From assembly GCA_043747295.1 (NCBI GenBank), contig JAYTPK010000168.1, positions 9,121-73,120 on the forward strand: a stretch of 64,000 nt of DNA, written 5' to 3'. The notes under the pieces are model-generated. The model saw only the letters and a program-made list of their open reading frames with translations, searched no databases and was not told where the DNA came from. This document shows positions 1,881 to 58,626 of the stretch, one piece after another (positions within the stretch are counted from its first letter, which is position 1; the number at the start of each line of letters is the position of its first letter). This DNA comes from Polaromonas sp. GTDB lineage: Bacteria > Pseudomonadota > Gammaproteobacteria > Burkholderiales > Burkholderiaceae_C. The translations under genes were made by a program, and so were the position numbers.

Positions 1881-1948
1881 CTATCAAATTAATAGCTGTC
1901 TAAGCAATGAATACTTGGACTACAAAGCTATTTAGCACCTAAAAGCGC
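1881..1948 (-). repeat. dispersed repeat family, copy 1 (intergenic)
   Basis: CTATCAAATTAATAGCTGTCTAAGCAATGAATACTTGGACTACAAAGCTATTTAGCACCTAAAAGCGC matches the reverse complement of the family core. Confidence 0.8.
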
Positions 1949-1958
1949 ACTCAACAGC

Positions 1959-2477
1959 TTAAAAAGTACCTACATAGTCCTTCTTACCCACATCCACGCC
2001 GTTATGCCGCAAAACGCTGTACGCCGTAGTGGTGTGAAAGAAAAAGTGTGGCAGTGCGTAGTTCAGCAAATACGACTGACCCGTAAAACGCTTTTCTTTT
2101 GGTGTACCCGCTTGCGTCACGATCTCGCGTGTGGCGGCTTGGTCAAACGCTGCCACGTCTAAGCTGGCCATAAATTTTATAACCGCTGCAATACGCTCTT
2201 GCAGTTGGTCAAACGTTAGTTCTGTGTCAGCCATCACAGGCACTTCTACACCGGCTAGGCGTGCGGCAGCGCCTTTGGCAAAATCGCAAGCTACTTGCAC
2301 TTGGCGCAGCAAACCAAACATGTCAGGAAACAACCGCGCCTGCAGATATGCGTTAGGGTCAATACTTTTAGCAGTGGCATGCGCCTGCGCCTTGGCTAGC
2401 ACGGCACTCAGACCGCCCAGCAGCTGGGTAAAAACTGGCACGCTGGCGGAATACATCATGTTGGAGGTGGTGGTCAT
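1959..2477 (-). CDS. DUF1993 domain protein
   Basis: 172 aa. MTTTSNMMYSASVPVFTQLLGGLSAVLAKAQAHA and the C-terminal FFFHTTTAYSVLRHNGVDVGKKDY are typical of DUF1993. Confidence 0.8.
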   Translation of the reverse strand: MTTTSNMMYSASVPVFTQLLGGLSAVLAKAQAHATAKSIDPNAYLQARLFPDMFGLLRQVQVACDFAKGAAARLAGVEVPVMADTELTFDQLQERIAAVIKFMASLDVAAFDQAATREIVTQAGTPKEKRFTGQSYLLNYALPHFFFHTTTAYSVLRHNGVDVGKKDYVGTF

Positions 2478-2650
2478 GAAAAGCTTTCTGTATGGATAAA
2501 AGTAGGCGTATGCTGTGCAAAACTAAGCTCGATTGTCGCCGGGATTGCAGCGCAGATACCAGCGTAACCAAAAAAGCCTTTGGCTTGCGCCACAATCTGA
2601 CCAGTTCATCTTAATTGCCTACTTCAAAGCTTCATCTCCAACACTGCCCC

Positions 2651-4015
2651 ATGGACCAACTGCAATCGCTGCTCAATAGTTTTTTTGCTTTCAAAGCCTA
2701 CGTGATGCTGCCCATCATCATCTTTGCTATCGCGCTGGCCGTGCGGTTGCCGCTGCAGCAGGCGCTGCACAGCAGTGTGTCGCTAGCTGCTGGCTTTGCT
2801 GGGGTGTTTATTGCATTTAACTTCTTCGTAGCCAATATCAGCCCTGCAGTGCAGCAGCTGTCTACGGTGCGGGGCTTAAGCTACCCGGTACTAGATGTGG
2901 GCTGGCCTCCGCTGGCGGCCATCACCTGGGCATCGCCACTGGCCATCATCTCGATACCGATGGTGCTGGTGCTAAACCTCACCATGCTGGCACTGGGCCT
3001 TACGCGCACGATCTACATTGATATTTGGAACTACTGGCACTTTGCCTTGCTGGGCGCATTGGTGATGACCAGCACAGGCAGCATGGCGCTGGGCTTGTCG
3101 GCCGTAGTGATTGTGGCGGTGTATTGCTTCAAAATGGCCGAATGGTCGGCACCTGATATTGAGCGTGAGATGGGCTTGAAAGGCATCTCAGCGTCACCTG
3201 TGTCCGTCAATGGCTTGGTGCCCTACATTGCTTGCATGGAGTGGTTGATTCAGCGCACACCACTTAAATCGGTGGGCTACTTTCCACAGCGCGATACTCA
3301 GCCTGGCCAAGAGCGTGCAGGCCTTAGTATCGTCAGCTTGCTTAGCGAGCCTATGGTGATGGGCCTGTGCATGGGTATCGCGCTAGCACTGGCTGCGGGC
3401 TATGGTGTGCAAGCTACGCTAGAGTTGGGCGTGCACATTGCAGCGGTGATGTTTATCTTGCCCCAGTGCGGGGGTTTAATCGGCAAAGCCATGATGCCCA
3501 TTACCAGCGCGTTGCGTGACCAAGTGACGCGCCGCTTTCCCAGCCGCACTAACCTCGTGGTGGCGCTGGACACCGGTTTTTTGATGGGCCACAGAGCCGT
3601 CATCATGACGGGGCTGATATTGATGGCCTTGGCCATTGTGATTGCGCTCATTTTGCCCGGCAACAAAGTGCTGCCACTGGGAGATTTGCCCAACCTGATC
3701 TCAGTCATGTCGCTGGCTGTGCTGATGCTGCGCGGCAATGTGCTGCATGCAGTGCTGACGGGTATCCCGGTGATCATCACATTTTTGCTGATTGCGTCTG
3801 ACATGGCACCGCTGTACACCAGCCTTGCACTTAAAACACCGTCATTTAACGCCCAAGGCTTGGGGCAAATTACCGCTTTCACCGACGGTGGGCACCAAGT
3901 GCGTTATGTGCTGTTTGCGCTGTACCAAGGCCAGTTGTGGGCTTGGCTGGCGCTGGTGGGGTTGGTAGCAGCCAGCGCGCTGGCTTGGCGCAGGTACGTT
4001 CGCGCAAGCGCTTAG
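2651..4015 (+). CDS. PTS galactitol-family EIIC-like permease (GatC homolog), orphan
   Basis: Multi-TM protein. LDVGWPPLAAITWAS and YIDIWNYWH match E. coli GatC segments (VDVGWPGSSPMTWAS, NVDIWNIWH). ATG at 2651 within ORF 2615..4015. Confidence 0.8.
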   Translation: MDQLQSLLNSFFAFKAYVMLPIIIFAIALAVRLPLQQALHSSVSLAAGFAGVFIAFNFFVANISPAVQQLSTVRGLSYPVLDVGWPPLAAITWASPLAIISIPMVLVLNLTMLALGLTRTIYIDIWNYWHFALLGALVMTSTGSMALGLSAVVIVAVYCFKMAEWSAPDIEREMGLKGISASPVSVNGLVPYIACMEWLIQRTPLKSVGYFPQRDTQPGQERAGLSIVSLLSEPMVMGLCMGIALALAAGYGVQATLELGVHIAAVMFILPQCGGLIGKAMMPITSALRDQVTRRFPSRTNLVVALDTGFLMGHRAVIMTGLILMALAIVIALILPGNKVLPLGDLPNLISVMSLAVLMLRGNVLHAVLTGIPVIITFLLIASDMAPLYTSLALKTPSFNAQGLGQITAFTDGGHQVRYVLFALYQGQLWAWLALVGLVAASALAWRRYVRASA

Positions 4016-8788: not shown

Positions 8789-8815
8789 CTCCTGAACCGT
8801 AGTTCAGGAGCCTTT
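8784..8815. terminator. bidirectional hairpin terminator between convergent genes
   Basis: Perfect 14-bp stem AAAGGCTCCTGAAC / GTTCAGGAGCCTTT with loop CGTA, flanked by A and T runs. Confidence 0.6.
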
Positions 8816-18244: not shown

Positions 18245-18364
18245 GGAATTCCTTGGATTTCAATAATTACTGAAATTATAAGAAACTCAAAGAAATATAC
18301 AAGGGTTATTACTTATTACCTGCGCTGTCAGCAGGTGAATAGCCATGGTTGGGCTCGGTATTTA

Positions 18365-18448
18365 CTATCGATTTCATAGCTGTCTGAGTAATGAATACTT
18401 GGACTAACAGCATATTTTGTTGGTAAAAGTGCCGTTTTAGTGCTTTTT
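18365..18448 (-). repeat. dispersed repeat family, copy 3 (intergenic)
   Basis: CTATCGATTTCATAGCTGTCTGAGTAATGAATACTTGGACTAACAGCATATTTTGTTGGTAAAAGTGCCGTTTTAGTGCTTTTT. Confidence 0.8.
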
Positions 18449-18480
18449 GTGGTTCTTTGTATTGGGACGCGATCTGCTGC

Positions 18481-19928: not shown

Positions 19929-20954
19929 TTGAGTGCCGCAGTCGAAGTGGCAAGCTTGCGAACCAGTTACGTCGGACGTTTTGCGCCCTCACCTACCGGG
20001 CCACTGCACGCAGGATCGCTGGTAGCGGCGCTGGCCAGCTGGCTTGATGCGCGTGCGCATGGCGGCCGCTGGCTAGTACGCATCGAAGACGTTGACACCC
20101 CCCGCTGCGTGCCCGGTGCTGACCACAATATGCTGCAGCAGCTAGCGCAGTGCGGTTTGGTCCCCGATGAGCCACCGGTGTACCAGTCGCAGCGCGGAGT
20201 ACATTACCAGGCCGCCCTAGACACTCTGAAACTGGCGCAATATGCCTACCCCTGCACTTGCTCGCGCAGTGATATTGAAGCCGTGTGGCAAGCCAGGGGC
20301 TTAGCCAAACCGCGCCATGGCGAGCTGATCTACCCGGGCACTTGTCGTCACAGTGCTGCGGCTGTTGATAACCTGCAACGTAGCCCTGCTTGGCGTTTTA
20401 AAACTGACTTTTCACAACAAAATCAGCCTGTAGTCCAAGTATCTGCTACTCAAGCAGCTATTAAAGATATAGCAAGCACACTTCAACCTTGCGCCGCAAT
20501 TGTAGATTGGACAGATCGCCGCTTGGGCCCGCAAACGCAATCGGTGGCCACCGCAGTGGGTGACTTTGTACTGCGCCGCGCTGACAGCCTGTGGGCGTAT
20601 CAGCTGGCTGTGGTGGTAGACGATGCGCTGCAAGGCGTTACCCACGTGGTGCGAGGTGAAGATTTAGCCGACAACACCGCACGGCAAATCTTGCTGCAGC
20701 ATGCGCTGGGCTACCCCACACCGCGGTACCTGCACACGCCACTGCAACTGGCAGCGGATGGACAAAAATTGTCTAAACAAAATGGTGCTCAGGCACTTCA
20801 ACTTGGCAGCACAGAGGCAGCGTCCAGCGCTTTAATACAGGCTGCAAAAGCACTAAAACTTAATCCAAATGGATACAGTTATGCCAATAAATCAAACTAT
20901 CTGGGACAATTGTTGCCTAATTTGTTGACACAATGGAAAACCATCTACTACTAA
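19929..20954 (+). CDS. gluQ: tRNA glutamyl-Q(34) synthetase
   Basis: [51 protein letters not shown] and KLSKQN match GluQRS. TTG start is uncertain. It carries an in-frame repeat-derived insert. Confidence 0.9.
20398..20477 (+). repeat. dispersed repeat family, copy 4, translated in frame inside gluQ
   Basis: AAAACTGACTTTTCACAACAAAATCAGCCTGTAGTCCAAGTATCTGCTACTCAAGCAGCTATTAAAGATATAGCAAGC encodes [26 protein letters not shown]. Confidence 0.75.
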
Positions 20955-23577: not shown

Positions 23578-24399
23578 ATGAGCGATATTTCTCCCCTTCC
23601 CCCAGCCACTGTACCTGCAGCAGCAGACACCGCAGTACCCACCACCCCGCATCCCAAAGCCCGCCCCATTCGCAGCTTTGTGCTGCGCACCGGCCGCACC
23701 ACCGTAGGCCAAGCCAAAGCACTGGAGGATTTGGGCCCTCAATATTTGCTGCCGTATCAATCAAACGCTATAGATTTAATAGCTGTACAAGCAGTAAATA
23801 CTTGGACTACTGGCCAAAATGCTACTCAAACCATCCTAGAAATCGGTTTTGGCATGGGCGAAGCCACAGCACACATTGCCAAGCTGCTGCCGCAAGCTTT
23901 GTACTTGGCCTGTGAGGTGCATCCACCCGGTGTGGGCGCGTTGCTCAAGCGTATTGGTGATGAAGGCATTGGCAATATTCGCATCATTCAGCACGATGCC
24001 GTGCAAGTGCTAGAGCACATGCTGGCGCCAGACAGCCTAGACGCAGTGCACATTTTCTTCCCCGACCCTTGGCATAAAAAACGCCACAATAAACGCCGCT
24101 TGATCCAAGCGCCCTTGGTCAAATTGCTAGCCTCACGCATTAAGCCTGGCGGCTATATCCACTGCGCTACCGACTGGGAAAACTACGCCGAGCAAATCTT
24201 GCAAGTGCTGACCGATGAGCCGCTGCTCTCCAACACGGTGCCCGGCACACCAGCCACTGGCACCGCACCTGCTACTGGCTATGCACCCAAGCCGGATTAC
24301 CGACCGCTGACGAAATTTGAAAACAGGGGTATTAAGCTAGGCCACGGAGTATGGGATCTGGTGTTTAGACGCAACATGGCGCACAGTTCAGGTGCATAG
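23578..24399 (+). CDS. trmB: tRNA (guanine-N7)-methyltransferase
   Basis: ILEIGFGMGEATAHIA, FFPDPWHKKRHNKRRL and ATDWENYAE are TrmB motifs. ATG at 23578 within ORF 23524..24399. Confidence 0.9.
   Translation: MSDISPLPPATVPAAADTAVPTTPHPKARPIRSFVLRTGRTTVGQAKALEDLGPQYLLPYQSNAIDLIAVQAVNTWTTGQNATQTILEIGFGMGEATAHIAKLLPQALYLACEVHPPGVGALLKRIGDEGIGNIRIIQHDAVQVLEHMLAPDSLDAVHIFFPDPWHKKRHNKRRLIQAPLVKLLASRIKPGGYIHCATDWENYAEQILQVLTDEPLLSNTVPGTPATGTAPATGYAPKPDYRPLTKFENRGIKLGHGVWDLVFRRNMAHSSGA
23768..23827 (-). repeat. dispersed repeat family, copy 5, translated in frame inside trmB
   Basis: CTATAGATTTAATAGCTGTACAAGCAGTAAATACTTGGACTACTGGCCAAAATGCTACTC encodes AIDLIAVQAVNTWTTGQNAT. Confidence 0.75.
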
Positions 24400-25773: not shown

Positions 25774-25851
25774 AAAAAGTAGCACTTTTACCCATCATAT
25801 TGGCCTATAGTCCAAGTATTTATTGCTTATATAGCTATGCAATTAATAGCG
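25774..25851 (+). repeat. dispersed repeat family, copy 6 (abuts the alaS stop)
   Basis: AAAAAGTAGCACTTTTACCCATCATATTGGCCTATAGTCCAAGTATTTATTGCTTATATAGCTATGCAATTAATAGC. Confidence 0.85.
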
Positions 25852-25853
25852 CA

Positions 25854-30757: not shown

Positions 30758-31780
30758 TTAAATGCGCAAGCCGTCTTTATCAAAATAATGCAGATGCTCA
30801 GGTGGTGCCGTCACAAACACCTTGTCGCCGCGCTGCACACTGGTTTGCCCGTTAAGCACTAGCTCAAACACCGTATCCTCTGCACCCTGATGCACCACCA
30901 CGCCGTGCAGCAAGCTGGTGGAACCCAGTTGCTCAACCTGGGACACTGTAACAGTCAGGGCACCAGAAGCCGCGCTTTGTACCAATTGCGCATGCTCTGG
31001 CCTGATGCCTACGGAGTGTGTGCCTGCAGGCGAGTGCGGCACAGCAGCTGAGGGTACAAAATTCATACGCGGGCTGCCAATAAAGCCCGCAACAAAGGTG
31101 TTTTGCGGCCGGTTGTACAGCTCTAGCGGTGTGCCTACTTGCTCTATCACACCTGCGCGCAGCACCACAATTTTGTCAGCCATCGTCATAGCTTCTACTT
31201 GGTCATGCGTCACATAAATCATGGTGGCTTTCAGCCGTGCATGCAAGTCACGAATCTCCGAGCGCATGGACACGCGCAGCTCGGCGTCCAGGTTAGAAAG
31301 TGGCTCGTCAAACAAAAATAGTTTAGGCTCACGCACGATCGAGCGGCCAATAGCCACGCGCTGACGCTGGCCACCCGACAGCTGGGTAGGCTTGCGCTGC
31401 AGCAAGGCATCTAAGCGCAGCAAGGCGGCTGCAGCGTTCACCTTGGCGGCAATCACAGCAGCAGGCACCTTCATGTTTTCCAGACCAAAGGCCATGTTGT
31501 CGTACACCGTCATGTGCGGGTACAGCGCGTACGACTGAAACACCATAGCGCAACCTCGGTGCGCAGCAGACACCTCGTTGACAATGTTGCCATCAATCAA
31601 AATATCACCACCAGAAGGCGCATCTAAACCCGAGATGATGCGCAACAAGGTAGATTTACCGCAGCCTGATGGCCCAACAAATACGATAAATTCGCCATCT
31701 GCCACAGACAAATCCAAGCTGCGAATGATGGATGTTTTATCGTAGCTCTTTGATATATTTTTCAGTTCCAACGTGGCCAT
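30758..31780 (-). CDS. sugar ABC transporter ATP-binding protein (MalK/UgpC type)
   Basis: Walker A GPSGCGKST, signature LSGGQRQR and Walker B LFLFDEPLSNLD. Confidence 0.92.
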   Translation of the reverse strand: MATLELKNISKSYDKTSIIRSLDLSVADGEFIVFVGPSGCGKSTLLRIISGLDAPSGGDILIDGNIVNEVSAAHRGCAMVFQSYALYPHMTVYDNMAFGLENMKVPAAVIAAKVNAAAALLRLDALLQRKPTQLSGGQRQRVAIGRSIVREPKLFLFDEPLSNLDAELRVSMRSEIRDLHARLKATMIYVTHDQVEAMTMADKIVVLRAGVIEQVGTPLELYNRPQNTFVAGFIGSPRMNFVPSAAVPHSPAGTHSVGIRPEHAQLVQSAASGALTVTVSQVEQLGSTSLLHGVVVHQGAEDTVFELVLNGQTSVQRGDKVFVTAPPEHLHYFDKDGLRI

Positions 31781-31789
31781 ACCGTCCCT

Positions 31790-32857
31790 TTACTTCACGC
31801 CTGCGCCAGCTATGCCAGTGGTGATATATTTTTGTAAAAATGCAAATACCAAGCTCACAGGGATCAGCGTGATCACCGTCATGGCCAGCAAATAGTGCCA
31901 CTGGGTATTAAGCTCGCCTTGAAACGAATTAAGCGCCAGTTGCAATGTGAACTTTTCAGATTTGGACAACACAATCAAAGGCCATAAAAAATCGTTCCAG
32001 CGCCACATCACCGAGAAAATAGCCAGCACAGCCATGGCAGGCGCGGCCAACGGCAAAATAATCTTCCAGTAAATGCGCCATTCACTGGCATGGTCCATAC
32101 GGGCAGCTTCTAGCAGCTCATCAGGAATGGTCAGCATGTATTGGCGAAGCAAAAACACACCCGTAGGCGTGGCTACAGCAGGCAATATGACACCCCATAG
32201 GCTGTTGAGCAACCCCACGCTAGAGATAACCAAAAAAGCGGGCACTAAAATAATGGTGGGTGGAATCATCAACGTGGCAATGATCAAAATAAACACCGTC
32301 TTTTGCCCACGGAACTGGTACTTGGACAACGCAAACGCCGCCATTGAGTTAAACAGCAGTGTGATGATGGTAGCCACCACCGTGATGAACACACTGTTCC
32401 ACAAATAGGTACCAAAGCTGAATTTGCCAAACACCTCGGTGTAATTGCTCCAGGCAAACTGCATCTCATTGACTGGTGTGCGGTTTTTGATGTTGGTTTT
32501 GATCTCTACCGTGGGCTGCGCTGGGTCTACCAGCGTCGCCACTATACCCATGCGGCTCACCTGTGCCAGCTCGCGTGTAGCACCCGACTCGTCTTTGACG
32601 ATGTACAACGGCAAGGGTTTATCGTGACCACTCACAACCACCGTTTTTTGGCTGTAAGGCAAAAAGGTGGGCGGGAACTGTGCCAAGGCGCTTTCTGTTT
32701 TAAACGACGACATGACTAGCCACAGCACGGGGCCAAACATCATGAACAAGCCCGCCACCAGGTAAGCGTAGGTCACCCAATCAGTCCAGTCAAAATGCTG
32801 CCTGCCACGGGTTCGGGTTCGGGTTCGGGTTCGGGTTAAAAATTGAAGCACGCTCAT
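31790..32857 (-). CDS. carbohydrate ABC transporter permease
   Basis: Binding-protein-dependent permease with EAA-like loop DELLEAARMDHASEWRIYWKIILPLA. The ATG abuts the upstream stop. The N-terminus contains (TR)5. Confidence 0.88.
   Translation of the reverse strand: MSVLQFLTRTRTRTRTRGRQHFDWTDWVTYAYLVAGLFMMFGPVLWLVMSSFKTESALAQFPPTFLPYSQKTVVVSGHDKPLPLYIVKDESGATRELAQVSRMGIVATLVDPAQPTVEIKTNIKNRTPVNEMQFAWSNYTEVFGKFSFGTYLWNSVFITVVATIITLLFNSMAAFALSKYQFRGQKTVFILIIATLMIPPTIILVPAFLVISSVGLLNSLWGVILPAVATPTGVFLLRQYMLTIPDELLEAARMDHASEWRIYWKIILPLAAPAMAVLAIFSVMWRWNDFLWPLIVLSKSEKFTLQLALNSFQGELNTQWHYLLAMTVITLIPVSLVFAFLQKYITTGIAGAGVK
32808..32837. repeat. (CGGGTT)5 hexanucleotide microsatellite inside the permease 5' coding region
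   Basis: Five perfect tandem CGGGTT units encode TRTRTRTRTR at residues 8-17. Confidence 0.9.
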
Positions 32858-33919: not shown

Positions 33920-35194
33920 TTACCGTTGAGCTTGCTTGACTGCGTCAGCCATGTCTGTGGAGATCTTGGCCATCGCCTCATCGGTGCTCATTTCACCCAC
34001 AATGGCCTGCGTTACACGGGTCACAGTCGGCAGCATGATGGCGCGGTTGAACTTATAGCCTTGGAACAAGAATGCCTCGGTGGTCAGGCTGGCAACGCCA
34101 CCGCTGAACACGCCCAGCGCAGCGCGCATGGCAGGTGCAGCGCCTGGATAGCTCACGCCTTTTTTAGCCAAGCCTTGGTGCGCAGGGATGTTATTGGTTT
34201 TGCCAATGAACTCTGCATAGTTGGCCTCAGAGGCAATAAAGTCCATGAATGCGCCCACTTCTTTAGGTGACTTGCTGGTTTTGAGCGCTACCCAAGCAGC
34301 GCCACCTGGAATGCCTGAACATGCAGCTGGGCCGCAGGGGTTAGGTACAGCCACCCAGTCAAACTTGGTGCCTACGTCTTTTTGCAGGCGGTTGATTTGC
34401 CATGAGCCTGACAATACCATCGCTACACGGCCGTTGGTAAATTCGCCAACAGAATCAGCATACGTTGAGCCGCCCGAGCCGCCCCACACTTCTTTGAGCA
34501 TCGCGCCGTCTTTGTGCCAGCCTACAAATTTATTGACCGCAGTTTTGTAGCCGTTGTCCAAAATCAAGTTGCCTTGGGCATCAAAAATCTTAGCGCCATA
34601 GCTGATCGCTGGGCCTGCAAAGCGGTGGCCAGAGCGGTCCCACGCCATACCTGCGGTTAACTGGGTTGCCTTAGCTACTTTGCGAGTGGCTTCAACCCAC
34701 TCGTCCCACGTAGCTTTAGGGCCTGGCAGCTCGACCTTAGCTTGCTCAAACAGTGTTTTATTCACATAAGGGCCAGTCATGGTCAGCTGGGACATGAAGC
34801 CGTAAATACCTTTGTCGGTCGCGCTGGGGCGCAGCCAAGTTTGTGTCGCGCCAAAGTTAGCGTCCCAGTATTTGGTGTCTTTCACATGGGTGCTGATGTC
34901 CATGTAGTACTTGGACAAACCGCCCAAGTCAGTCACGCGCGCAATATCTGGGCCTTGGCCTGCGGCCAACTGCACTGGCAGCTGCTCCAAAATTGTTTTG
35001 TAGGGCACCACATCAATGATGACTTTGGTGCCAGCGTTAGCGGCTTCAAAGCGCTTAGCTTGCTCGGTCATTACGTCGCATTCCACACCGTCTTGGTAGC
35101 ACATCACGCGGATCTCGCCAGCAGATGCTAATGTGGGTGCCATCACAGCGATAAAAGTTGCGCATGCAACAGCAGAAAGAAGGGGTTTGTTCAT
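33920..35194 (-). CDS. sugar ABC transporter substrate-binding protein (family 1)
   Basis: MNKPLLSAVACATFIAVMAPTLASA signal peptide. Typical family-1 SBP length. ATG at 35194 within ORF 33920..35206. Confidence 0.85.
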   Translation of the reverse strand: MNKPLLSAVACATFIAVMAPTLASAGEIRVMCYQDGVECDVMTEQAKRFEAANAGTKVIIDVVPYKTILEQLPVQLAAGQGPDIARVTDLGGLSKYYMDISTHVKDTKYWDANFGATQTWLRPSATDKGIYGFMSQLTMTGPYVNKTLFEQAKVELPGPKATWDEWVEATRKVAKATQLTAGMAWDRSGHRFAGPAISYGAKIFDAQGNLILDNGYKTAVNKFVGWHKDGAMLKEVWGGSGGSTYADSVGEFTNGRVAMVLSGSWQINRLQKDVGTKFDWVAVPNPCGPAACSGIPGGAAWVALKTSKSPKEVGAFMDFIASEANYAEFIGKTNNIPAHQGLAKKGVSYPGAAPAMRAALGVFSGGVASLTTEAFLFQGYKFNRAIMLPTVTRVTQAIVGEMSTDEAMAKISTDMADAVKQAQR

Positions 35195-35346: not shown

Positions 35347-36360
35347 TTATTGCGCGGTGATGCCTGCCGTTTTGATCACGCGGGTCCAGCGATCTTTTTC
35401 AGATTTGACAAACGCGCTGTAAGCCGCAGCACCCAAAGTGGGCACCACAAAACCTGTGGACTCTAGGCGCTGCTTGAGTTCAGCACTTTGAATGGCTTTG
35501 ACCATTTCAGCCTCCAGCTTGTCAACAATCGCTTTAGGGGTACCTTTGGGCAGCGACATGCCTGACCACGACAGCGCAGAAAAACCGGGGTAGCCAGACT
35601 CACTGACGGTGGGTACATCAGGGTACAGCGGGTTGCGCTGCGCGCTAGATACCGCCAGCGCGCGCAGTTTGCCCGCTTTAACGTGCTGCAAAGCGACGTC
35701 TTGGTTGATGAACATCATGGGGATTTGGCCGCCCAGCAGGTCGGTCATCATCGGGCCGCCGCCACGGTACGGTATGCCCACCATGAACAGACCTTTGCAA
35801 TCGGTTTTACCAGCTGGGCAGGCTGACACGGTTTGCTTGAGTAACTCCATCGCCATGTGGCCAGACGCTGCATGGGTGTAGCCGTAATTGAGCTTGCCTG
35901 GGTTGGCCTTGCCGTAGTCCACCAGTTCTTGCAGTGTTTTAAACGGCTGGCTGGGGTGCACCACCAGCACGTTAGGCCCTGAGTTAACTTGCGTGAGGTG
36001 GATAAAGTCGTTGTTAGAGTCGTACTTTAAATTGGCATCCAGCCCATGGGCTACGGCGTTTTGCCCTACCCCAGTTTGCACGATGGTGTAACCATCAGCG
36101 TTGGCCTTGGAGCCGCGCTCTGTGCCAATCACGCCACCTGCACCGCCCACGTTTTCAACCACAAAGGGCTGCTTCATCGACTTGGTCAACGCGTCGGCCA
36201 TCATGCGGGCCATCACATCGCTGGTGCCACCTGGCGGAAAAGGTACGATCACTTTAACGGCTTTAGTGGGGTAGTCAGCCTGCGCCAGTGCCACGCCAGA
36301 CACTATAAAAAGCATAGCTGCTTGAGCAATAAATACTTGGACTACACGGTTATTTAGCAT
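35347..36360 (-). CDS. Bug/TctC family tripartite tricarboxylate transporter substrate-binding protein
   Basis: Mature start DYPTKAVKVIVPFPPGGTSDV is the Bug-family hallmark. The N-terminal 16-20 codons lie inside a repeat copy. Confidence 0.88.
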   Translation of the reverse strand: MLNNRVVQVFIAQAAMLFIVSGVALAQADYPTKAVKVIVPFPPGGTSDVMARMMADALTKSMKQPFVVENVGGAGGVIGTERGSKANADGYTIVQTGVGQNAVAHGLDANLKYDSNNDFIHLTQVNSGPNVLVVHPSQPFKTLQELVDYGKANPGKLNYGYTHAASGHMAMELLKQTVSACPAGKTDCKGLFMVGIPYRGGGPMMTDLLGGQIPMMFINQDVALQHVKAGKLRALAVSSAQRNPLYPDVPTVSESGYPGFSALSWSGMSLPKGTPKAIVDKLEAEMVKAIQSAELKQRLESTGFVVPTLGAAAYSAFVKSEKDRWTRVIKTAGITAQ

Positions 36361-36372
36361 ATAAAGCCTTCA
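36303..36372 (-). repeat. dispersed repeat family, copy 7, supplies the start codon and signal-peptide N-region of tctC
   Basis: CTATAAAAAGCATAGCTGCTTGAGCAATAAATACTTGGACTACACGGTTATTTAGCATATAAAGCC. On the minus strand it reads MLNNRVVQVFIAQAAMLFIV. Confidence 0.8.
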
Positions 36373-36412
36373 TTAAATGGATAGAAATTTACGGGATAGT
36401 CTGCAAACTTTT

Positions 36413-37141
36413 TTAACGGCCCTGCGTTGTGCGCCAGGCTGCAAAGTCTGTTCGCGACTGCTCATCTGTCGGTGGATATAAACCCAAAATGCTGCGACCC
36501 TGCAGCACCTGGGCAGTCACAAAATCTTCAAACGCTGTCATCTCTACCGCCTCGGCGGCTATCTCATCAGCCATGTGCGCGGGGATAACAATCACGCCTT
36601 CTTTGTCGCCCACCATCACGTCTCCGGGCCACACGGCTACATCGCCACAGCCGATCGGCAGATTGATGTCTAGCGCTTGGTGCAAGGTTAAGTTAGTCGG
36701 CGCGCTGGGGCGCTGGTGGTAGCACGGAAAAGGTAATGCAGCAATCTCGGGCGAATCTCTAAACCCACCGTCGGTTACCGCGCCTGCGCAGCCGCGCACC
36801 ATCAGGCGTGTAATCAAAATAGAACCTGCTGACGCAGCGCGTGCATCTTTACGGCTGTCAAACACCATCACCGCGCCTGGGGGGCATTGCTCTACCGCCG
36901 CACGCTGGGGGTGTGTGCGGTCTTGAAACACGGTGATAGGGTTTAAATCTTCGCGTGCAGGAATGTAGCGCAGCGTAAACGCTGGGCCCACCATATTGGG
37001 TTGTTTGGCAGTCAGGTCGGTGTTAACCGGGCGCACGTCTTGAATAAACTGGTTGCGCAGCCCGCGCTTGAACAGCGCAGTACACAGCGTAGCGGTGCTG
37101 ACGGTTTTGAGCTTGTCACGGGTCGAGGTGCTTAAGGTCAT
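36413..37141 (-). CDS. RraA-like / class II pyruvate aldolase family protein (HMG/CHA aldolase-like)
   Basis: LKTVSTATLCTALFKRGL N-terminus and the GDVMVGDKEGVIVIP motif are typical of RraA/demethylmenaquinone-methyltransferase-like proteins. Confidence 0.75.
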   Translation of the reverse strand: MTLSTSTRDKLKTVSTATLCTALFKRGLRNQFIQDVRPVNTDLTAKQPNMVGPAFTLRYIPAREDLNPITVFQDRTHPQRAAVEQCPPGAVMVFDSRKDARAASAGSILITRLMVRGCAGAVTDGGFRDSPEIAALPFPCYHQRPSAPTNLTLHQALDINLPIGCGDVAVWPGDVMVGDKEGVIVIPAHMADEIAAEAVEMTAFEDFVTAQVLQGRSILGLYPPTDEQSRTDFAAWRTTQGR

Positions 37142-37188
37142 AGGCTTTTAGCTAAGTTAAAAAGTAGTGGTGGTCAATGATGCAATGG

Positions 37189-37911
37189 CTAGCGATCTAG
37201 CTGCCGGTCCAGCAAACGGTTGCGTGCTTGGTCGATGTGGTAGCGCATGGCAATGCCTGCACTGTCGGCGTCTGACACGCGAATGGCGTTGACAATGCGG
37301 TCATGCTCATCCAGCACACGGTCGCGCCGCTGGGCAGACGCAGCGCGCGTGAGCGACAGCGTCACATTCATGCTGCCTTTGTGTTTATCTGCCAGCTGGT
37401 CGAGTGTTTCCAGCAGCATGCTGTTGCCTGATGCCACGGCAATAGCGCGGTGAAATGCATAGTCGGCCTCTTGCGCCGCTTGGCCTTTGCCAAACACAGT
37501 TTTCAGCAAAATGGCGGCTTTTTCGATGGTGCGTAATTGCGCGTCCGTGCGCTGGCGCGCAGCCAAGCGCGCAGACAACTCTTCTATGGCCATGCGCAGC
37601 TCCAGGCTTTGCAGCACATCGTGCAATGTAAAAGTGCGCGTGAGTTCACCCAGCTTTTGCGACGGGCTACGCTGCACAAAGCTGCCCGAGCCTTGGCGCG
37701 AGATGACCACGCCATCACTTTGCAGCCTTTGCAAAGCCTCGCGCACTACAGGGCGTGAGACGTTAAACCGCTCGGCCAGTTGCGTCTCAGGCGGCAAACG
37801 ATCGCCCACAGCTACCGTACCGGCCATGATGTCGCCAAGTAGCTCGGTGTAGACGGTCTGCGACAAGCGCAGTCGGTCTACAGCCAAGGGTGACAGGTCA
37901 GCAGTGGGCAT
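37189..37911 (-). CDS. GntR family (FadR subfamily) transcriptional regulator
   Basis: HTH region LPPETQLAERFNVSRPVVREALQRLQSDGVV plus an all-helical FCD-type C-terminal domain. Confidence 0.9.
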   Translation of the reverse strand: MPTADLSPLAVDRLRLSQTVYTELLGDIMAGTVAVGDRLPPETQLAERFNVSRPVVREALQRLQSDGVVISRQGSGSFVQRSPSQKLGELTRTFTLHDVLQSLELRMAIEELSARLAARQRTDAQLRTIEKAAILLKTVFGKGQAAQEADYAFHRAIAVASGNSMLLETLDQLADKHKGSMNVTLSLTRAASAQRRDRVLDEHDRIVNAIRVSDADSAGIAMRYHIDQARNRLLDRQLDR

Positions 37912-39745: not shown

Positions 39746-40660
39746 TCAAGTTGTGATGGCAAAAATAGGTTCGGGCAGGCCTTGCACGCCCGGGCGCAGC
39801 GCAAACACACCGCCCGCCAGCGGCTGGTCTGACAGGTCAATGCCTTCAGGCCGGATGGACGTGACAAACAGCGTGCGCATGTCGTCGCCACCAAAGGCGC
39901 ACATGGCGGGTTTTTTAACGGGCACGGCCAGCGACTGGTCTAACTTGCCTTGTGGTGTGAAGCGGTGTACCAAGCCTGCGTCGTTGCCGCAAATCCAGTA
40001 GCAGCCGTCGGCGTCCACCGCTGCGCCGTCTGGGCGGCCGGGCAGCGGGTGCATGTCCACAAATACGCGGCGGTTGGTAGGTGTGCCGGTTGCGGTGTCG
40101 TAGTCAAAAGCCCATACGGTTTGCACGCTGGGGTGTGAATCGCTCAGGTACATGGTGCGGCCATCAGGGCTGAAGGCTAGGCCGTTGGGCACTACCATGT
40201 GATCTACCAGCTGCCTTAAGTTACTATTATTTTCGTAGCTGGTTAAGCAGGGATTACCTTGTCCTACAGCCATATTGACCATCATGGTACCGGCCAAAAA
40301 CCGCCCTTGACGGTCGCAGCGGCCATCGTTAAAGCGCATGCCATGGGTGTTGTGTGGCGCAACAACTAGGCGCTTAACTTGCAAGTCACCACCCTGCCCT
40401 TGACCCGTGATAGGTGCAGGCGTGCGCAGATGGAAAATTCCACTCTCCATACCGGCAATCCAACCGCCCGCAGCATGCATGGCGATGCAGCCCAGCATCT
40501 CGGGCGCGGCCCAGCTTTGCACCTGCTCGCTACTGGCTTGCCATTGGTAGAGCTTTTTTTGCACAATGTCTACCCAGTACAGCGCTTTGTCTGCAGGGTG
40601 CCACACGGGGCTTTCGCCTACGCTGTTGCGGGCATCGACAATAAGTTCTGCGGTGCTCAT
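39746..40660 (-). CDS. SMP-30/gluconolactonase/LRE family lactonase
   Basis: [32 protein letters not shown] and [12 protein letters not shown] are beta-propeller lactonase motifs. Confidence 0.88.
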
Positions 40661-41540: not shown

Positions 41541-41611
41541 ATTTTACTACCGGGAGGGAGCTTGTCTAGTCATTGATTACCCTTGTTTGGCAATCGTCAC
41601 ACTACAAAGAA

Positions 41612-41700
41612 CCAGTAAAAGCACTAAAACATCACTTTTATCAATGAAATATGCTTGTAGTCCAAGCATTTACTACTTAGACAGCTATGAAATTAATAGC
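41612..41700 (+). repeat. dispersed repeat family, copy 8, supplies the last codons and stop of ispF
   Basis: CAGTAAAAGCACTAAAACATCACTTTTATCAATGAAATATGCTTGTAGTCCAAGCATTTACTACTTAGACAGCTATGAAATTAATAGCAC. The ispF stop (CTA at 41685-87) lies in the CAGCTATGAAATT core. Confidence 0.8.
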
Positions 41701-42167
41701 ACTGCAGCTCTAGCCTCGATGCTCAAGCCCTCACCTACCGGCCCCATCTTCTCTGCAGTTTTAGCCTTTACATTCACTTGCGATACCGCCACCCCCAATG
41801 CAGCAGCAATACGCTCGCACATCGCCGGAATGTGCGTTGCCAGCTTAGGAGCCTGCGCGATGATGGTGCTGTCGACGTTGCCAATTTGGTAGCCTGCAGC
41901 CCGCACGCGCCGTGCGGCTTCAGTCAGCAAAGCAATTGAATCTGCACCTTTAAACTGCGCATCCGTATCAGGAAAGTGACGGCCAATATCACCCAAGGCC
42001 GCTGCACCCAGCAGTGCGTCGGTGATGGCGTGCAACAGCGCGTCAGCGTCTGAATGGCCTAGCAAACCTTTGTCGAAAGGGATGTGCACGCCGCCCAGTA
42101 TCAGCTTGCGACCAGGTACCAAGGCATGGGTGTCCCAGCCTTCGCCAATTCGAAATGGTGTGTTCAT
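41685..42167 (-). CDS. ispF: 2-C-methyl-D-erythritol 2,4-cyclodiphosphate synthase
   Basis: [26 protein letters not shown] and [19 protein letters not shown] are IspF motifs. Confidence 0.95.
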
Positions 42168-46813: not shown

Positions 46814-47196
46814 ACAGCAACATTTTGATTTGTTGGCTCAAAGGACAAGGCAAAGTAACCCAGCAGCTGCAAAGCAAGTCGCCCCAGCACATCAAGATAC
46901 CAGCACCTGCTTTGTTTGAGCTGGAATAAGGCACTGCCAAATCACTAAAGCCGCAGCTACAACGTGAATTTATCGATGCGCTGGTGCTAAAGCTTGAAGT
47001 ACTTCCGCTGGACTACCCCAGCGCCGAAGCCGCTGGCTTATTGCGTAGCTCACTAGAAAGTAAAGGCAATTTGATAGGCTCCTACGATTTATTAATCGCA
47101 GGCATCGCCATAGCCCACAACCTGACAGCCATTACCCGCAACACCCGCGAGTTTGCACGCGTACCCGGCCTACGTGTAGAAAACTGGTACGACTGA
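46801..47196 (+). pseudogene. vapC: PIN-domain toxin VapC interrupted by one in-frame TAA at codon 43
   Basis: MYLLDSNILICWLKG...PAPALFELE-TAA(46927-29)-GTAKS...DLLIAGIAIAHNLTAITRNTREFARVPGLRVENW. Both halves are in one frame. The stop sits where VapC proteins have Tyr (ELEYGA). Confidence 0.8.
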
Positions 47197-47198
47197 GT

Positions 47199-47263
47199 CA
47201 TTTAGGTGCCAAATATGCCCGTAGTCCATGTATTCATTGCTCGAACAGCTATTAAATTGATAG
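47199..47263 (+). repeat. dispersed repeat family, copy 9 (intergenic)
   Basis: CATTTAGGTGCCAAATATGCCCGTAGTCCATGTATTCATTGCTCGAACAGCTATTAAATTGATAG. Confidence 0.75.
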
Positions 47264-47299
47264 AATCTAGCAAGCCATTAGAGGATCGAGCAGAGCAAC

Positions 47300-49247: not shown

Positions 49248-49435
49248 AGCATGGCTCTCCCGTAAAATAACTGTACCTAGGCAGTTGACATACAACCGCC
49301 ATGACAGGTATTCAGCAACAACGCAGCGCAGCTAGCCGGCGTTGACTGCATGCCTGGCATGCCTACATGCTAGGCACTGTATTTACACTCCCTTTACATA
49401 TCGGTTCAGCCCGTATTTTTAACCTCAGCGCCTTT

Positions 49436-50149
49436 ATGTCTGCACACGAATACTCTCCCGGATTAGTTATTCAAAACTTTACTGCGCCATTGCAGTTAGC
49501 CCACTTTAAGTTGGCAGCATTTGATATGGACTCCACGCTGATTAACATCGAGTGCGTTGACGAGATAGCCGATGCAGCGGGTCGTAAAGCAGAAGTTGCG
49601 GCCATCACCGAGGCGGCCATGCGCGGCGAGATTACCGACTACAAAGACAGCCTGCGCCGCCGTGTAGCGCTGCTTAAAGGCGTTCCTGTTAGTGCGATGG
49701 AGCAGGTATACACGCAGCGCTTGCAGCTTAACCCTGGCGCACAGGTGTTGACGCAAGCTTTTAAAGCTGCGGGCATGAAGCTGCTTTTAGTGTCGGGTGG
49801 TTTCACGTTTTTTACGGATCGTATTCGTGATCGATTGCAGATCGACTGGGCGCGCTCTAACGTGCTGGAGATAGCCGATGGCCTACTGACAGGCCGCATG
49901 GTAGACCAGCCTTGGGGTGATATTTGTGACGGCGAACAAAAGCGCCTGACGCTGCTTCAGACATGCGCTGCCATGGGCATTGATGCATCGCAAACCATCG
50001 CAGTGGGTGATGGCGCAAACGATTTGCCCATGATGGGTGCGGCAGGTTTGTCAGTAGCCTTTCACGCTAAACCTGCAGTGCGTGCCAAAGCGATGGTGTC
50101 TATCAACACGGGTGGTTTAGACCGTGTTTTAGGGCTATTTACCAGCTAA
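49436..50149 (+). CDS. serB: phosphoserine phosphatase
   Basis: HAD motifs FDMDSTLI, LVSGGF and GDGANDLPM. ATG at 49436 within ORF 49367..50149. Confidence 0.88.
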   Translation: MSAHEYSPGLVIQNFTAPLQLAHFKLAAFDMDSTLINIECVDEIADAAGRKAEVAAITEAAMRGEITDYKDSLRRRVALLKGVPVSAMEQVYTQRLQLNPGAQVLTQAFKAAGMKLLLVSGGFTFFTDRIRDRLQIDWARSNVLEIADGLLTGRMVDQPWGDICDGEQKRLTLLQTCAAMGIDASQTIAVGDGANDLPMMGAAGLSVAFHAKPAVRAKAMVSINTGGLDRVLGLFTS

Positions 50150-50200
50150 ATCAGCCTGTAGTCCAAGTATTTATTACTTATATAGCTATTAAATTGATAG
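50140..50200 (+). repeat. dispersed repeat family, copy 10 (overlaps the serB stop)
   Basis: CCAGCTAAATCAGCCTGTAGTCCAAGTATTTATTACTTATATAGCTATTAAATTGATAG. Confidence 0.85.
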
Positions 50201-50207
50201 TGAAGCA

Positions 50208-58149: not shown

Positions 58150-58216
58150 TGCTTTTTCCAATCGAATAGCCTTGCAGTCCAAGTATTCATTACTTAAGCA
58201 GCTATCAAATTTATAG
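58150..58216 (+). repeat. dispersed repeat family, copy 12 (intergenic)
   Basis: ...GAATAGCCTTGCAGTCCAAGTATTCATTACTTAAGCAGCTATCAAATTTATAG. Confidence 0.8.
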
Positions 58217-58242
58217 TAAATTAACTTTAGAAAGACTCTGCC

Positions 58243-58602
58243 ATGTCCTCAATTACCACACCAAGCGGCTTGGAGTACACCGACACCCAAGTAGGCACCG
58301 GTGCCGCAGCTGTAGCGGGCCAACAAGTTAGCGTGCATTACACCGGCTGGTTGTTCAACGACGGCGTGCAAGGTGCTAAGTTTGACTCTAGCAAAGACCG
58401 TGGCCAACCGTTTGAGTTTGACTTGGGCGCAGGCATGGTCATCAAAGGCTGGGACGAAGGCGTAGCGGGCATGCAAGTAGGCGGTGCGCGTACCCTGGTC
58501 ATCCCGGCAGCCCTCGGGTACGGCGCACGCGGTGCGGGCGGCGTGATCCCGCCTAACGCAACGCTGAAGTTTGATGTCGAGCTGTTAGGCCTGCGCGGCT
58601 AA
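58243..58602 (+). CDS. FKBP-type peptidyl-prolyl cis-trans isomerase (cytoplasmic)
   Basis: VHYTGWLFNDGVQGAKFDSSKDRGQPFEFDLGAGMVIKGWDEG...YGARGAGGVIPPNATLKFDVELL. Confidence 0.92.
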   Translation: MSSITTPSGLEYTDTQVGTGAAAVAGQQVSVHYTGWLFNDGVQGAKFDSSKDRGQPFEFDLGAGMVIKGWDEGVAGMQVGGARTLVIPAALGYGARGAGGVIPPNATLKFDVELLGLRG

Positions 58603-58626
58603 TCTGGCAGCCCTTCATCGCAACCT

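Follow-up and report, generated by a model that had tools for sequence, protein, structure and literature searches.

To our knowledge, few clear and comparatively supported cases exist in which a dispersed bacterial repeat has become an essential part of a protein, and the published precedents, YPAL and RPE, are mostly in silico and drawn from single species. REP/REPIN sequences, with their RAYT, are short, abundant and mostly extragenic, often lie downstream of convergent genes, and are long-lived and vertically inherited; the DUS of Neisseriaceae and USS of Pasteurellaceae have cores of 9-12 nt, occur at about one per kb and form lineage dialects. A MITE of Polaromonas JS666 was reportedly described by Mattes et al. 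in 2008.

In Yersinia, the 168-bp palindromic YPAL / RU-2 MITE forms in-frame fusions with ORFs (Delihas 2007; PMC2229807). The repeat partly forms the predicted signal peptide of the exported protein YPO1552, and the fused ORF encodes a small protein without assigned function, whose conservation is limited to Y. pestis and Y. pseudotuberculosis (PMC2229807). Rickettsia palindromic elements (RPE) are palindromes of ~100-150 bp restricted to Rickettsia, with a large share of their copies in frame in unrelated genes, where they form internal surface loops tolerated as peptide inserts (Ogata et al. 2000, summarised in PMC10969869). BRE, a repeat of ~90 bp and 69% G+C that often forms tandem arrays (VNTR), has been reported in Bordetella and in Comamonadaceae, including Polaromonas JS666 with 29 copies (Hot et al. 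2011, PMC3110155).

We describe here a repeat, one copy of which contains the start codon of a tctC/Bug gene in a 64-kb stretch of Polaromonas sp. DNA (the window, meaning the whole stretch analysed). No paper describing this repeat was found in a literature search.

A dispersed repeat family and its relation to known elements

The repeat is an AT-rich family of ~66 nt (G+C about one-third) with at least 13 copies within the window, about one per 5 kb, always solitary. A repeat search of the window yielded families D1-D3, whose 12 copies measure ~65-75 nt each and include both orientations. An alignment of 12 copies has 21 invariant columns, and identity between copies within the genome is 60-85%. 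Most copies are intergenic, and most have stop codons in what is the leader frame at tctC (TAA in CTTAAG); hydrophobic peptides are encoded by both strands of the repeat. Genic or intergenic class was assigned from ORF context, a GC3 filter for gene calling being too blunt, and on this basis five of the 13 copies in the window are intragenic. The copies, with coordinates, strand, context and evidence, are:

36300-36367, plus strand (antisense to tctC): copy in tctC; profile of the 11 others, alignment, families D2/D3
20404-20476, minus strand: in-frame copy inside gluQ; orientation and frame within the gene match those in tctC
23765-23838, plus strand: in-frame copy inside a trmB-like gene; opposite reading frame, AIDLIAVQAVNTWTTGQN
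52621-52683, plus strand: in-frame copy inside an acyl-CoA-synthetase-like ORF, ATNTIATRAINTWTTTLFD; profile search, window sequence only
40220-40276, plus strand: degenerate in-frame copy inside an SGL (gluconolactonase-like) gene; 17.2 bits
1878-1947, plus strand: intergenic copy between convergent ORFs; profile match, ORF context
8719-8793, plus strand: intergenic copy between convergent ORFs; profile match, ORF context
18361-18431, plus strand: intergenic copy; profile match, ORF context
25782-25853, minus strand: intergenic copy directly downstream of alaS; profile match, orthologous copies in relatives
41635-41702, minus strand: copy that is intergenic or overlaps an ORF 3' end; profile match, ORF context
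47194-47266, minus strand: intergenic copy downstream of a gene; profile match, ORF context
50130-50204, minus strand: copy between convergent genes, including the stop codon of ORF 49367-50149; profile match, ORF context
58150-58220, minus strand: intergenic copy; profile match, ORF context

Rfam 15 gave no match at gathering thresholds, and none on any repeat copy at E <= 1; matches to miRNA and snoRNA models were discarded as spurious, lying on an unrelated long hairpin at 60727-60913. RNAalifold, run on both strands, detected no compensatory changes and predicted no more than 3-9 pairs (-1.9 and -3.9 kcal/mol), and structure in the repeat is limited to a hairpin with a 5-bp stem and 7-nt loop (CTAT-N7-ATAG). 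The repeat was accordingly rejected as an sRNA or terminator, there being no conserved structure beyond this hairpin. Three candidates considered by eye were also set aside, namely a sigma-54 promoter (copies lack the GG-N10-GC spacing), a KOPS-like polar motif (copies are of mixed orientation) and a palindromic transcription factor site (the core is not palindromic). When examined as a possible MITE, the repeat showed no terminal inverted repeats, its ends (GCTAT.. and ..TAAAAG) being non-complementary and its only hairpin subterminal; no flanking direct repeats were visible in 12 copies, the boundaries of which are fuzzy.

In common with YPAL, the repeat is small and dispersed, and its open, hydrophobic frame is fused to that of a gene and forms part of a predicted signal peptide. 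Unlike YPAL, it is non-palindromic and of only ~66 nt, its host gene is well defined and under strong purifying selection, and the fusion extends across genera, recurs in several genes and in both orientations, and has constrained synonymous sites in the embedded copy. In-frame intragenic copies (5/13 in the window) are shared with RPE, from which the repeat differs in its length, its lack of palindromic character, its Polaromonas host and the absence of sequence similarity; moreover, the role in start codon and signal peptide seen here does not figure in that summary of RPE (PMC10969869). The window-type element begins with GTAG on one strand, as in REP/REPIN, but has no strong imperfect palindrome, has many intragenic copies, and occurs as solitary units with no inverted pairs; no RAYT gene was noticed among the ORFs of the 64-kb window, and GTAG is not conserved in the elements of other lineages, which have CTAG or TTAG. 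Intergenic and coding copies and lineage-specific variants at orthologous positions recall DUS and USS, an analogy of evolutionary pattern only, the unit here being ~66 nt at about one per 5 kb. As with BRE, the copies are small and mostly intergenic, some overlapping ORF ends or lying within ORFs; the present repeat departs from the BRE description in its length of ~66 nt, in a G+C content of about one-third and in its solitary occurrence throughout.

The repeat copy at the start of tctC

The features of the tctC locus, all on the minus strand, are:

35347-36360, minus strand: tctC/Bug gene, TTT-family periplasmic solute-binding protein, 337 aa; ORF, PF03401, structures, dN/dS
36358-36360, minus strand: ATG start codon inside the repeat copy; same start called independently in L081-L083 and kept in all orthologues
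36301-36360, minus strand: codons 1-20 (MLNNRVVQVFIAQAAMLFIV), repeat-encoded n-region and most of the h-region; ORF and profile match
36277-36300, minus strand: codons 21-28 (SGVALAQA), outside the repeat, last part of the h-region plus the AXA cleavage motifs; sequence, subfamily conservation
36367-36371, minus strand: GAAGG resembling a Shine-Dalgarno sequence at the outer repeat edge, 6 nt before the ATG; sequence
36370-36372, minus strand: in-frame TGA, 4 codons upstream of the ATG; sequence, ORF list
36413-37141, minus strand: RraA-like gene upstream of tctC; ORF, conserved DHAD-(GntR)-RraA-TctC synteny

A preliminary description had placed a repeat copy at 36303-36372, and this proves essentially right, because an nhmmer profile, built from the 11 other copies and excluding the tctC copy itself, matches 36300-36367 (49.4 bits, E 2.5e-13, profile positions 4-71). 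All 21 invariant family columns are present in the tctC copy, as are the hairpin CTAT-N7-ATAG and the core AATACTTGGACTAC; over 67 nt it agrees with the family consensus at 72%, and its 15-nt core is perfect. In the alignment, the ATG falls within the 3' portion of the repeat, and codons 1-20 fall within the profile match, much as had been proposed for the ATG and the first ~19-20 codons. The flank string in which the ATG had been located, TTATTTAGCATATAAAGCC (36350-36368), is unique in the window, exactly or with up to 3 mismatches, but aligns with the moderately conserved TATTTnnnnnnTAAAAG tail of the family. The peptide frame is also, as first noticed, that of the insert in gluQ.

PF03401 is annotated on all tctC homologues, and solved Bug/TctC structures (8hka, 2dvz, 2qpq, 2f5x) match residues ~27-336 with E values of 1e-49 to 1e-53; the alignment begins only at residue 27-33, and the PDB constructs start around SGVALAQA. 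By inspection, the leader has R5 in its n-region, a mean Kyte-Doolittle value of ~2.2 over V6-L25, and potential cleavage at ALA/Q or AQA/D(YP), within an AxAQxDYP motif conserved across the Bug subfamily. The repeat accounts for about two-thirds of the h-region, with 15 of ~20 residues (VVQVFIAQAAMLFIV); this region contains two Gln and is longer than average. No Tat signal was seen, the n-region MLNNR having a single Arg and no twin-arginine (S/T)RRxFLK motif. With its n-region charge, h-region and small -3/-1 residues, the leader looks like a Sec-type (SPase I) signal, as had been suggested, and M1 is the only start predicted to give a credible Sec leader.

The protein cannot begin further upstream, because the in-frame TGA closes the frame. 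At the position of GAAGG, L001 and L081 have AAAGG, likewise Shine-Dalgarno-like and 6-7 nt before M1, and the initiation region shows no structure (z = +1.2). A scan of 35900-37300 found no promoter- or terminator-like site in the 52-nt gap between RraA and tctC, and the two genes are therefore probably co-transcribed. A plus-strand TTGGAC-N17-TATAAA near tctC, picked by eye, fails the -10 rule of the promoter scan and is given no weight. Mature TctC, compared with its 94-95% orthologues, has dS values of 0.55-1.07 and dN/dS of 0.02-0.03; the gene is under strong purifying selection, and a pseudogene is therefore excluded.

Orthologues and the age of the arrangement

Twelve clusters of 94-100% orthologues keep the N-terminus M(L/S/F)N(N/S)RVVQVFIAQ(A/T)AMLFIV, and the same 337-aa TctC product is called independently on JGI contigs. 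In the 83-88% orthologues, LAL(C/Y)L replaces VVQVF. In all syntenic orthologues found, including L002 and L084 (83-88%) and those of P. glacialis and Rhodoferax-labelled MAGs (~70-75%), the N-terminus is homologous and element-like, though partly decayed (MxNKRLALxxIAQAAIxxIA), and its position and frame are unchanged. These orthologues share DHAD-RraA-TctC synteny, with GntR present in some arrangements [DHAD-(GntR)-RraA-TctC]. The 5' ends of 14 orthologues (L084, L002, L015, L012, L077, L020, L024, L007, L018, L017, L013, L039, L065, L053) give ungapped alignments with the element consensus at a constant offset, agreeing at 31-39 of 67 positions, whereas the controls, unrelated Bug leaders and the opposite strand, reach 21-31 of 67 at scattered offsets. 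The repeat profile matches orthologue 5' ends at the same coordinates (18.2 bits in L015), and GCAGCTAT-N7-ATAGC is already present in the 5' ends of the 83-88% and ~70-75% syntenic orthologues.

Other copies show the same persistence. Those in tctC, gluQ, trmB and SGL and downstream of alaS all occupy orthologous positions in one genome of the 85% group. Orthologous copies are found in L086 and L088 for trmB, in L081 and L086 for SGL, and in L081/L082 and L086 for the copy downstream of alaS. The gluQ "insert" is likewise old and shared with relatives, and gives no support for a recent replacement. No empty site was seen among relatives out to the JAN genome or, for gluQ and trmB, out to Variovorax and Rhodoferax, all of which have a copy or relic.

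Because all syntenic orthologues found already carry the element-like N-terminus, the exaptation is, on these comparisons, ancient, and older than the divergence of the syntenic orthologues found in Polaromonas and in Rhodoferax-like genomes. The preliminary description had suggested that the element may have replaced the native 5' end of tctC, and had pointed to orthologous tctC genes in relatives as a check; a recent replacement is not supported by the comparison, since orthologues down to ~70% have the element-like N-terminus throughout. Its proposal that the element was exapted as part of an export signal is supported by the retention of this N-terminus among orthologues of a gene with mature dN/dS of ~0.03. 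Since no empty site was found, the direction of change, from element to leader or from leader to element, cannot be polarised.

Constraint on the nucleotide sequence and lineage dialects

Codons 1-20 of tctC show 0-1 synonymous differences in ~13.5 synonymous sites when compared with L001 and L081, against a gene-wide ps of ~0.5. They form the lowest-ps window in tctC, and the SGL copy is the lowest-ps stretch of its own gene. Gene 5' ends are often constrained for translation, and windows as low occur in ~14 of ~237 non-overlapping 20-codon windows of 12 neighbouring genes. WIN, L001 and L081, which are ~87% identical overall, share an invariant run of 51 nt; it is only the third longest such run in the 6.8-kb three-way alignment, and is therefore treated as suggestive, not decisive.

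A lineage-specific core, TTGGACTAC, occupies old orthologous copies of the window lineage (tctC, gluQ, trmB), and it is invariant in window copies and across species in intergenic copies with unalignable flanks, which argues for purifying selection on the core itself. Other lineages have dialects of their own, GCCGGCTAC, GGGCTAA and GGGTTA, the latter two being the cores of L084 and JAN, respectively, each matched by the tctC copy of its lineage. In an NJ tree, L084 and L002 are successive outgroups that share YTAGCCCTT at tctC, as do L015 and L020, whereas WIN has GTAGTCCAAG. The second codon of the gluQ copy is GCC in Variovorax, R. saidenbachensis and Polaromonas L090, and in trmB the ACGCCGCCTAC of Variovorax resembles the JAN copy more than the window copy. 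These distinct dialects suggest concerted evolution of the copies, as read by parsimony over short blocks with a crude motif classification in a handful of genomes, mostly MAGs. Homogenisation would not be universal, since the SGL copy is without the window-type core; the four orthologous in-gene copies of the JAN genome also differ from one another. The leader stretch of tctC thus seems to be under two constraints, one from signal-peptide coding and one from a maintained repeat nucleotide sequence.

Discussion

We favour, with a probability of about 0.7, an account in which an ancient exapted repeat provides the start and leader of tctC and the nucleotide sequence of this copy has been maintained in the window lineage. 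An old, AT-rich repeat of Polaromonas and related Comamonadaceae, ~66 nt long, spans the RraA-tctC junction, antisense to its own plus orientation. In the tctC frame it encodes the ATG, the charged MLNNR of the n-region and 15 of the ~20 residues in the h-region of what would be a Sec-type leader of 26-28 aa. Gene DNA outside the repeat contributes SGVALA/QA/DYP and the mature TTT-family solute-binding domain. Transcription would be shared with the dehydratase, GntR and RraA genes, and translation would start from the GAAGG Shine-Dalgarno sequence at the repeat edge, the AT-rich repeat keeping the initiation region unstructured. The repeat-derived leader would have been inherited vertically since before the orthologue split, the sequence of the copy being preserved by selection on a putative cis function, by conversion between copies, or by both.

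A recently mobile repeat that entered the 5' end of tctC in the window lineage, replacing the start of an unrelated native leader, could explain both the closeness of the window copy to the family consensus and the LAL(C/Y)L of the 83-88% orthologues where the window has VVQVF. That reading is largely refuted and now quite improbable: the 83-88% and ~70-75% syntenic orthologues share the element-like 5' end with its offset and frame, five copies recur at the orthologous sites of a genome from the 85% group, and no TIR, TSD or presence/absence polymorphism was seen. Nor is a copy identity of only 60-85% the signature of recent transposition, and the near-perfect consensus match in the window lineage looks like concerted evolution or maintenance instead of fresh insertion. 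It is also quite improbable that the start is mis-annotated, with translation beginning downstream, or that the gene is decaying or its protein not exported, with the repeat reduced to 5' UTR or junk. An in-frame ATG does occur at codon 16, and gene callers misplace starts beside these repeats, as in an L084 paralogue called 26 codons short; however, M16 is not a credible start, because the 83-88% orthologues, among them L002 and L084, have Ile at this residue, as does L086, no Shine-Dalgarno sequence precedes it, and its leader would be an uncharged 13 aa. GAAGG or AAAGG stands instead before M1; every orthologue keeps the frame from M1 open and conserved, nonsynonymous changes in it are rare, and the mature dN/dS rules out a pseudogene.

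The lack of an empty site leaves room for the reverse direction, in which the family arose from a mobilised Bug 5' end (RBS, start and leader) and the tctC leader is its source or sibling; the element-like leaders of several Bug genes and of one further exported protein, and the hydrophobic peptides of both element strands, would fit such an origin. We nevertheless consider it very unlikely, given that most copies are intergenic with stop codons in the leader frame, that in-frame copies lie in both orientations inside the cytoplasmic enzymes gluQ, trmB, SGL and acyl-CoA synthetase, and that most Bug homologues have unrelated classic leaders; use of the element in both orientations among Bug leaders is, moreover, hard to derive from one coding source. 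A different objection concerns only the maintenance of the copy: the window lineage may simply have retained an ancestral element under selection while others decayed, with no concerted evolution or re-homogenisation. Core invariance in window copies and in cross-species intergenic copies with unalignable flanks would be expected, and the mutual differences among JAN's four orthologous in-gene copies are as decay predicts. Simple retention is nonetheless unlikely, as successive outgroups share the non-window state at tctC (YTAGCCCTT in L084, L002, L015 and L020), the gluQ GCC codon and the JAN-like trmB variant of Variovorax point the same way, and other lineages have internally consistent cores matched by their own tctC copies.

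The account of an ancient exapted repeat may be extended, tentatively and with more doubt than confidence, to a functional cis-element family of Comamonadaceae whose dialects are tracked by copies including those within ORFs, through co-evolution with a putative trans-acting factor or directed conversion. Hydrophobic peptides from both strands could then have repeatedly seeded signal peptides of periplasmic binding proteins, and the tctC leader would be dual-use, at once an export signal and a DNA or RNA site. Element-derived leaders do recur in other Bug genes, in both orientations, and an element-like leader is found in another exported protein.

Co-option of a dispersed, selfish-looking repeat as working protein sequence is well supported here, because the arrangement is old, conserved and recurrent in related genes. 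A repeat-derived leader in a strongly constrained gene, spread across genera, paralogues and both orientations, offers a natural system for studying the origin of signal peptides. The frozen synonymous sites and the lineage-specific cores at orthologous positions suggest sequence-specific function and concerted evolution in the family; if this is true, the homogenisation of dispersed short bacterial repeats and the constraints on overlapping codes become testable. On the practical side, the case also flags systematic mis-calls of start codons beside these repeats, the L084 paralogue having lost its leader in annotation.

The tctC start lies within a repeat copy

The tctC gene, which encodes a periplasmic solute-binding protein of the Bug type, begins inside a member of a dispersed repeat family. 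Its ATG occupies 36358-36360 on the minus strand, preceded four codons further 5' by an in-frame TGA (36370-36372). A profile constructed only from the 11 other copies, with the tctC copy left out to avoid circularity, matched 36300-36367 at 49.4 bits in nhmmer (E 2.5e-13; profile positions 4-71); because this match spans both the ATG and codons 1-20 (MLNNRVVQVFIAQAAMLFIV), both reside in a true family member, as the preliminary description had claimed. Its further observation, that the gluQ copy shares its frame with that in tctC, is borne out by translation of the gluQ copy, which shares the orientation too.

tctC and the other genes with in-frame repeat copies
35347..36360, minus strand: tctC/Bug gene, 337 aa
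20404-20476: in-frame copy in gluQ (19929..20954, plus strand)
23765-23838: in-frame copy in a trmB-like gene
40220-40276: degenerate in-frame copy in an SGL/gluconolactonase-like gene
52621-52683: in-frame copy in an acyl-CoA-synthetase-like gene

A repeat search of the window grouped 12 copies, ~65-75 nt long and lying in either orientation, into families D1-D3, and 13 copies are recognisable in the 64 kb. The consensus (GCTATnAATTTCATAGCTGTnTAAGCAATAAATACTTGGACTACAGGCCTATTTGGTnGnTAAAAG) is AT-rich against a window of 55% G+C, and 21 columns are invariant in the alignment of the 12 copies (CTA, ATAGCT, AG, A, AT, C and TGGACT). No conserved secondary structure other than a CTAT-N7-ATAG hairpin was found in the repeat, inspection of its copies revealed neither terminal inverted repeats nor target duplications, and no Rfam family matches it, even at E <= 1. 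The majority of copies lie directly 3' of genes, frequently between convergent genes; five, including that at the tctC N-terminus, occur in frame within ORFs, and the intragenic copies present a hydrophobic open frame on each strand (VVQVxAxQAA(I/M)xxIA versus AIxxIAxxAxNTWTT). Two copies (18365-18469 and 41595-41699) have an extra ~35-nt extension past the core (105 nt, 84% identity; pair I1), which suggests a longer subfamily or composite element. Another (50130-50204) overlaps the 3' end of a 260-aa ORF (49367..50149, plus strand), taking in the stop codon and the ~6 codons before it, so that this C-terminus may also be repeat-supplied.

Probable use of the repeat-encoded N-terminus

Judged from its sequence, M1 is the only start predicted to yield a plausible leader, with a single Arg in the n-region, an h-region of 20 residues (mean hydropathy ~2.2) and ALA-QA-DYP, which is found before the mature domain across this Bug subfamily; alignments with solved Bug/TctC structures begin only at residue 27-33. 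GAAGG lies 6 nt 5' of the ATG, with AAAGG at that site in close relatives. The alternative start, M16, was rejected: it lacks a Shine-Dalgarno sequence, would leave an uncharged 13-residue leader, and has its position occupied by Ile in orthologues of 83-88% identity. Independent gene calls chose the M1 start, and the whole element-encoded N-terminus is retained in 12 protein clusters (94-100% identity) from independent metagenomes. The gene is functional, since its mature part shows dN/dS of 0.02-0.03 (dS 0.55-1.07) against the related loci L001 and L081. The features of the M1 leader, its conservation and this ratio together support the proposal that the repeat was exapted into a plausible export leader, and export of the product is predicted.

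No promoter- or terminator-like site was found in the 52-nt gap between tctC and the upstream RraA-like gene, and conservation of the order DHAD-(GntR)-RraA-TctC in relatives makes co-transcription with the upstream genes likely. Compared with shuffled sequence, the initiation region tends, if anything, towards less structure (z = +1.2). Elsewhere in the protein, an insertion of ~11 residues (~183-193), which includes two cysteines (..SACPAGKTDCKG..), sets it apart from solved Bug structures and shows up as a gap when aligned with the PDB entries.

Similar arrangements occur in other exported proteins. In L084, a locus from a related genome, a second, distantly related Bug gene starts within another repeat copy in the same orientation (1824-1900; MLFNANNRSLAQQTIARAATYLVAFVMLIGWQNQAHAQA); the JGI call for this gene (1902..2840) begins 26 codons too late, without the leader. 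The Bug leader MKQKWMKLISTSATILIALSAINASAQ in two further loci (L066, 6037-6085; L075, 4575-4623) includes a segment resembling the element but running in the opposite orientation, and this segment matches the intergenic copy of its own genome at ~64% identity, GCAATAAAT included; a further exported protein likewise contains an opposite-orientation stretch (L037, 7287-7335; L042, 7289; L009, 7308). It thus appears that the repeat family is readily turned into signal peptide, and its exaptation would be recurrent.

Age of the exaptation

The preliminary description had also envisaged that the repeat replaced the native 5' end of tctC. As a recent event this is not supported, since syntenic orthologues down to ~70% identity are element-like at the same offset. 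The host is a Polaromonas, and in this protein its closest genome records show 95% and 83% identity. Orthologues at 83-88% (L002, L084, L086) carry the N-terminus MxNKRLAL(C/Y)LIAQAAIxxIA, and the same pattern appears at ~66-75% in syntenic or related genes of P. glacialis, other Polaromonas and Rhodoferax-labelled MAGs. Their 5' ends align with the element consensus gaplessly and at a constant offset (31-39 of 67 positions identical), whereas for the controls, Bug leaders of unrelated type and the opposite strand, the count is 21-31 and the offsets scatter; the repeat profile matches the orthologue 5' ends at identical coordinates (18.2 bits in L015), and many keep GCAGCTAT-N7-ATAGCA with its rare ATA codon. 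No syntenic orthologue with an "empty" RraA-tctC junction was found, so that whatever the element replaced, if anything, is not visible.

Other copies are similarly placed in relatives. We rejected the view of the gluQ insert as lineage-specific, since nearly every GluQRS homologue in the Comamonadaceae, at 61-80% identity and with Variovorax and Rhodoferax saidenbachensis among them, has a ~20-aa element-derived segment at this position, in variants that differ by lineage (VVQV, LAQQ, (L/I)AG(V/I), VAPV). GCA_031367325.1 (L086/L087, of the 85% group) has copies at the window-orthologous SGL, tctC 5' end, alaS-downstream, trmB and gluQ positions, and the trmB copy is also in place in a Variovorax locus (L088). 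These comparisons argue that exaptation of the tctC leader is old.

Lineage-specific cores and probable concerted change

All copies in the window, and in its relatives at 87% ANI, carry (A)ATACTTGGACTAC, including the old orthologous ones at tctC, gluQ, trmB and downstream of alaS. A motif scan of 1.04 Mb of fetched loci found each core variant nearly confined to its own genome group.

Core variants of the repeat by lineage
TTGGACTAC: window, L001, L081-83, L091
ACGCYGGCTAC: L037/L042/L009/L066/L075 group
GGGCTAA/G: L084/L002/L015
GGGTTA: L086/L087
GCCGGC: Variovorax (L088)

The core of the tctC copy goes with that of its genome. The window has TTGGACTAC in family and tctC copy alike; the family core and tctC copy read TTGGGCTAA and AAGGGCTAA in L084, and TTGGGTTAC and AAGGGTTAA in L086. 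A neighbor-joining tree of the mature protein gives (L084,(L002,(WIN,(L001,L081)))), where WIN is the window; YTAGCCCTT is common to L084, L002 and remoter genes at the site where the window has GTAGTCCAAG, and the gluQ and trmB outgroups likewise share states differing from the window's. By parsimony, these shared outgroup states imply, with moderate confidence, that several ancient copies changed in the same direction in the window lineage, a concerted evolution that could reflect either conversion among the copies or selection favouring a shifted recognition motif. It would predate the WIN/L081 split, because copy-specific differences are common to both. Confidence is held at that level by the small sample and by the SGL copy, which has not switched to the window-type core.

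Nucleotide-level constraint

Among WIN, L001 and L081 (~87% identical overall), the element part of tctC contains a 51-nt invariant run, the third longest in 6.8 kb; the longest (33920-33979 and 31773-31846; 61 and 74 nt) lie at ABC-transporter 3' ends, at gene junctions. Codons 1-20 show 0-1 synonymous differences per ~13.5 synonymous sites, against a gene-wide ps of ~0.5. When ps was scanned in 4,747 20-codon windows from 12 genes, the minima of tctC (0.076) and the SGL gene (0.082) fell on their element windows, both within the ~14 lowest non-overlapping windows. The intergenic copy downstream of alaS (25782..25853) keeps its core between unalignable flanks. Such constraint is suggestive of a sequence-specific function besides coding, and is not conclusive, since 5' coding regions are frequently constrained.

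Relation to known systems

Assignment of the repeat to the REP/REPIN or MITE classes was rejected, since neither a stable imperfect palindrome nor terminal inverted repeats were found in it, and no published description of it was found in the literature, one Polaromonas MITE paper lying outside the comparison. The lineage "dialects" of its core appear analogous to those of DNA uptake sequences. The nearest precedent for a repeat-formed leader is Yersinia YPAL/RU-2, in which a MITE contributes part of a predicted signal peptide (Delihas; PMC2229807). Rickettsia palindromic elements, the classic in-frame intragenic repeats (PMC10969869), behave alike within genes, but none of their sequence or structural hallmarks is found in the window element; the BRE of beta-proteobacteria differ in length, composition and tandem organisation (PMC3110155). 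The probable concerted evolution and possible dual constraint of the repeat add a twist that deserves follow-up.

Two other structures were noted in the window. A long hairpin at 60727-60913 (44-nt arms, 91% complementary, 99-nt spacer) is an element of a different kind, with spurious sub-threshold Rfam matches to miRNA and snoRNA precursors, and an inverted pair of 101 nt (4069-4169 and 58503-58603; I2) shows 72% complementarity across 54 kb.
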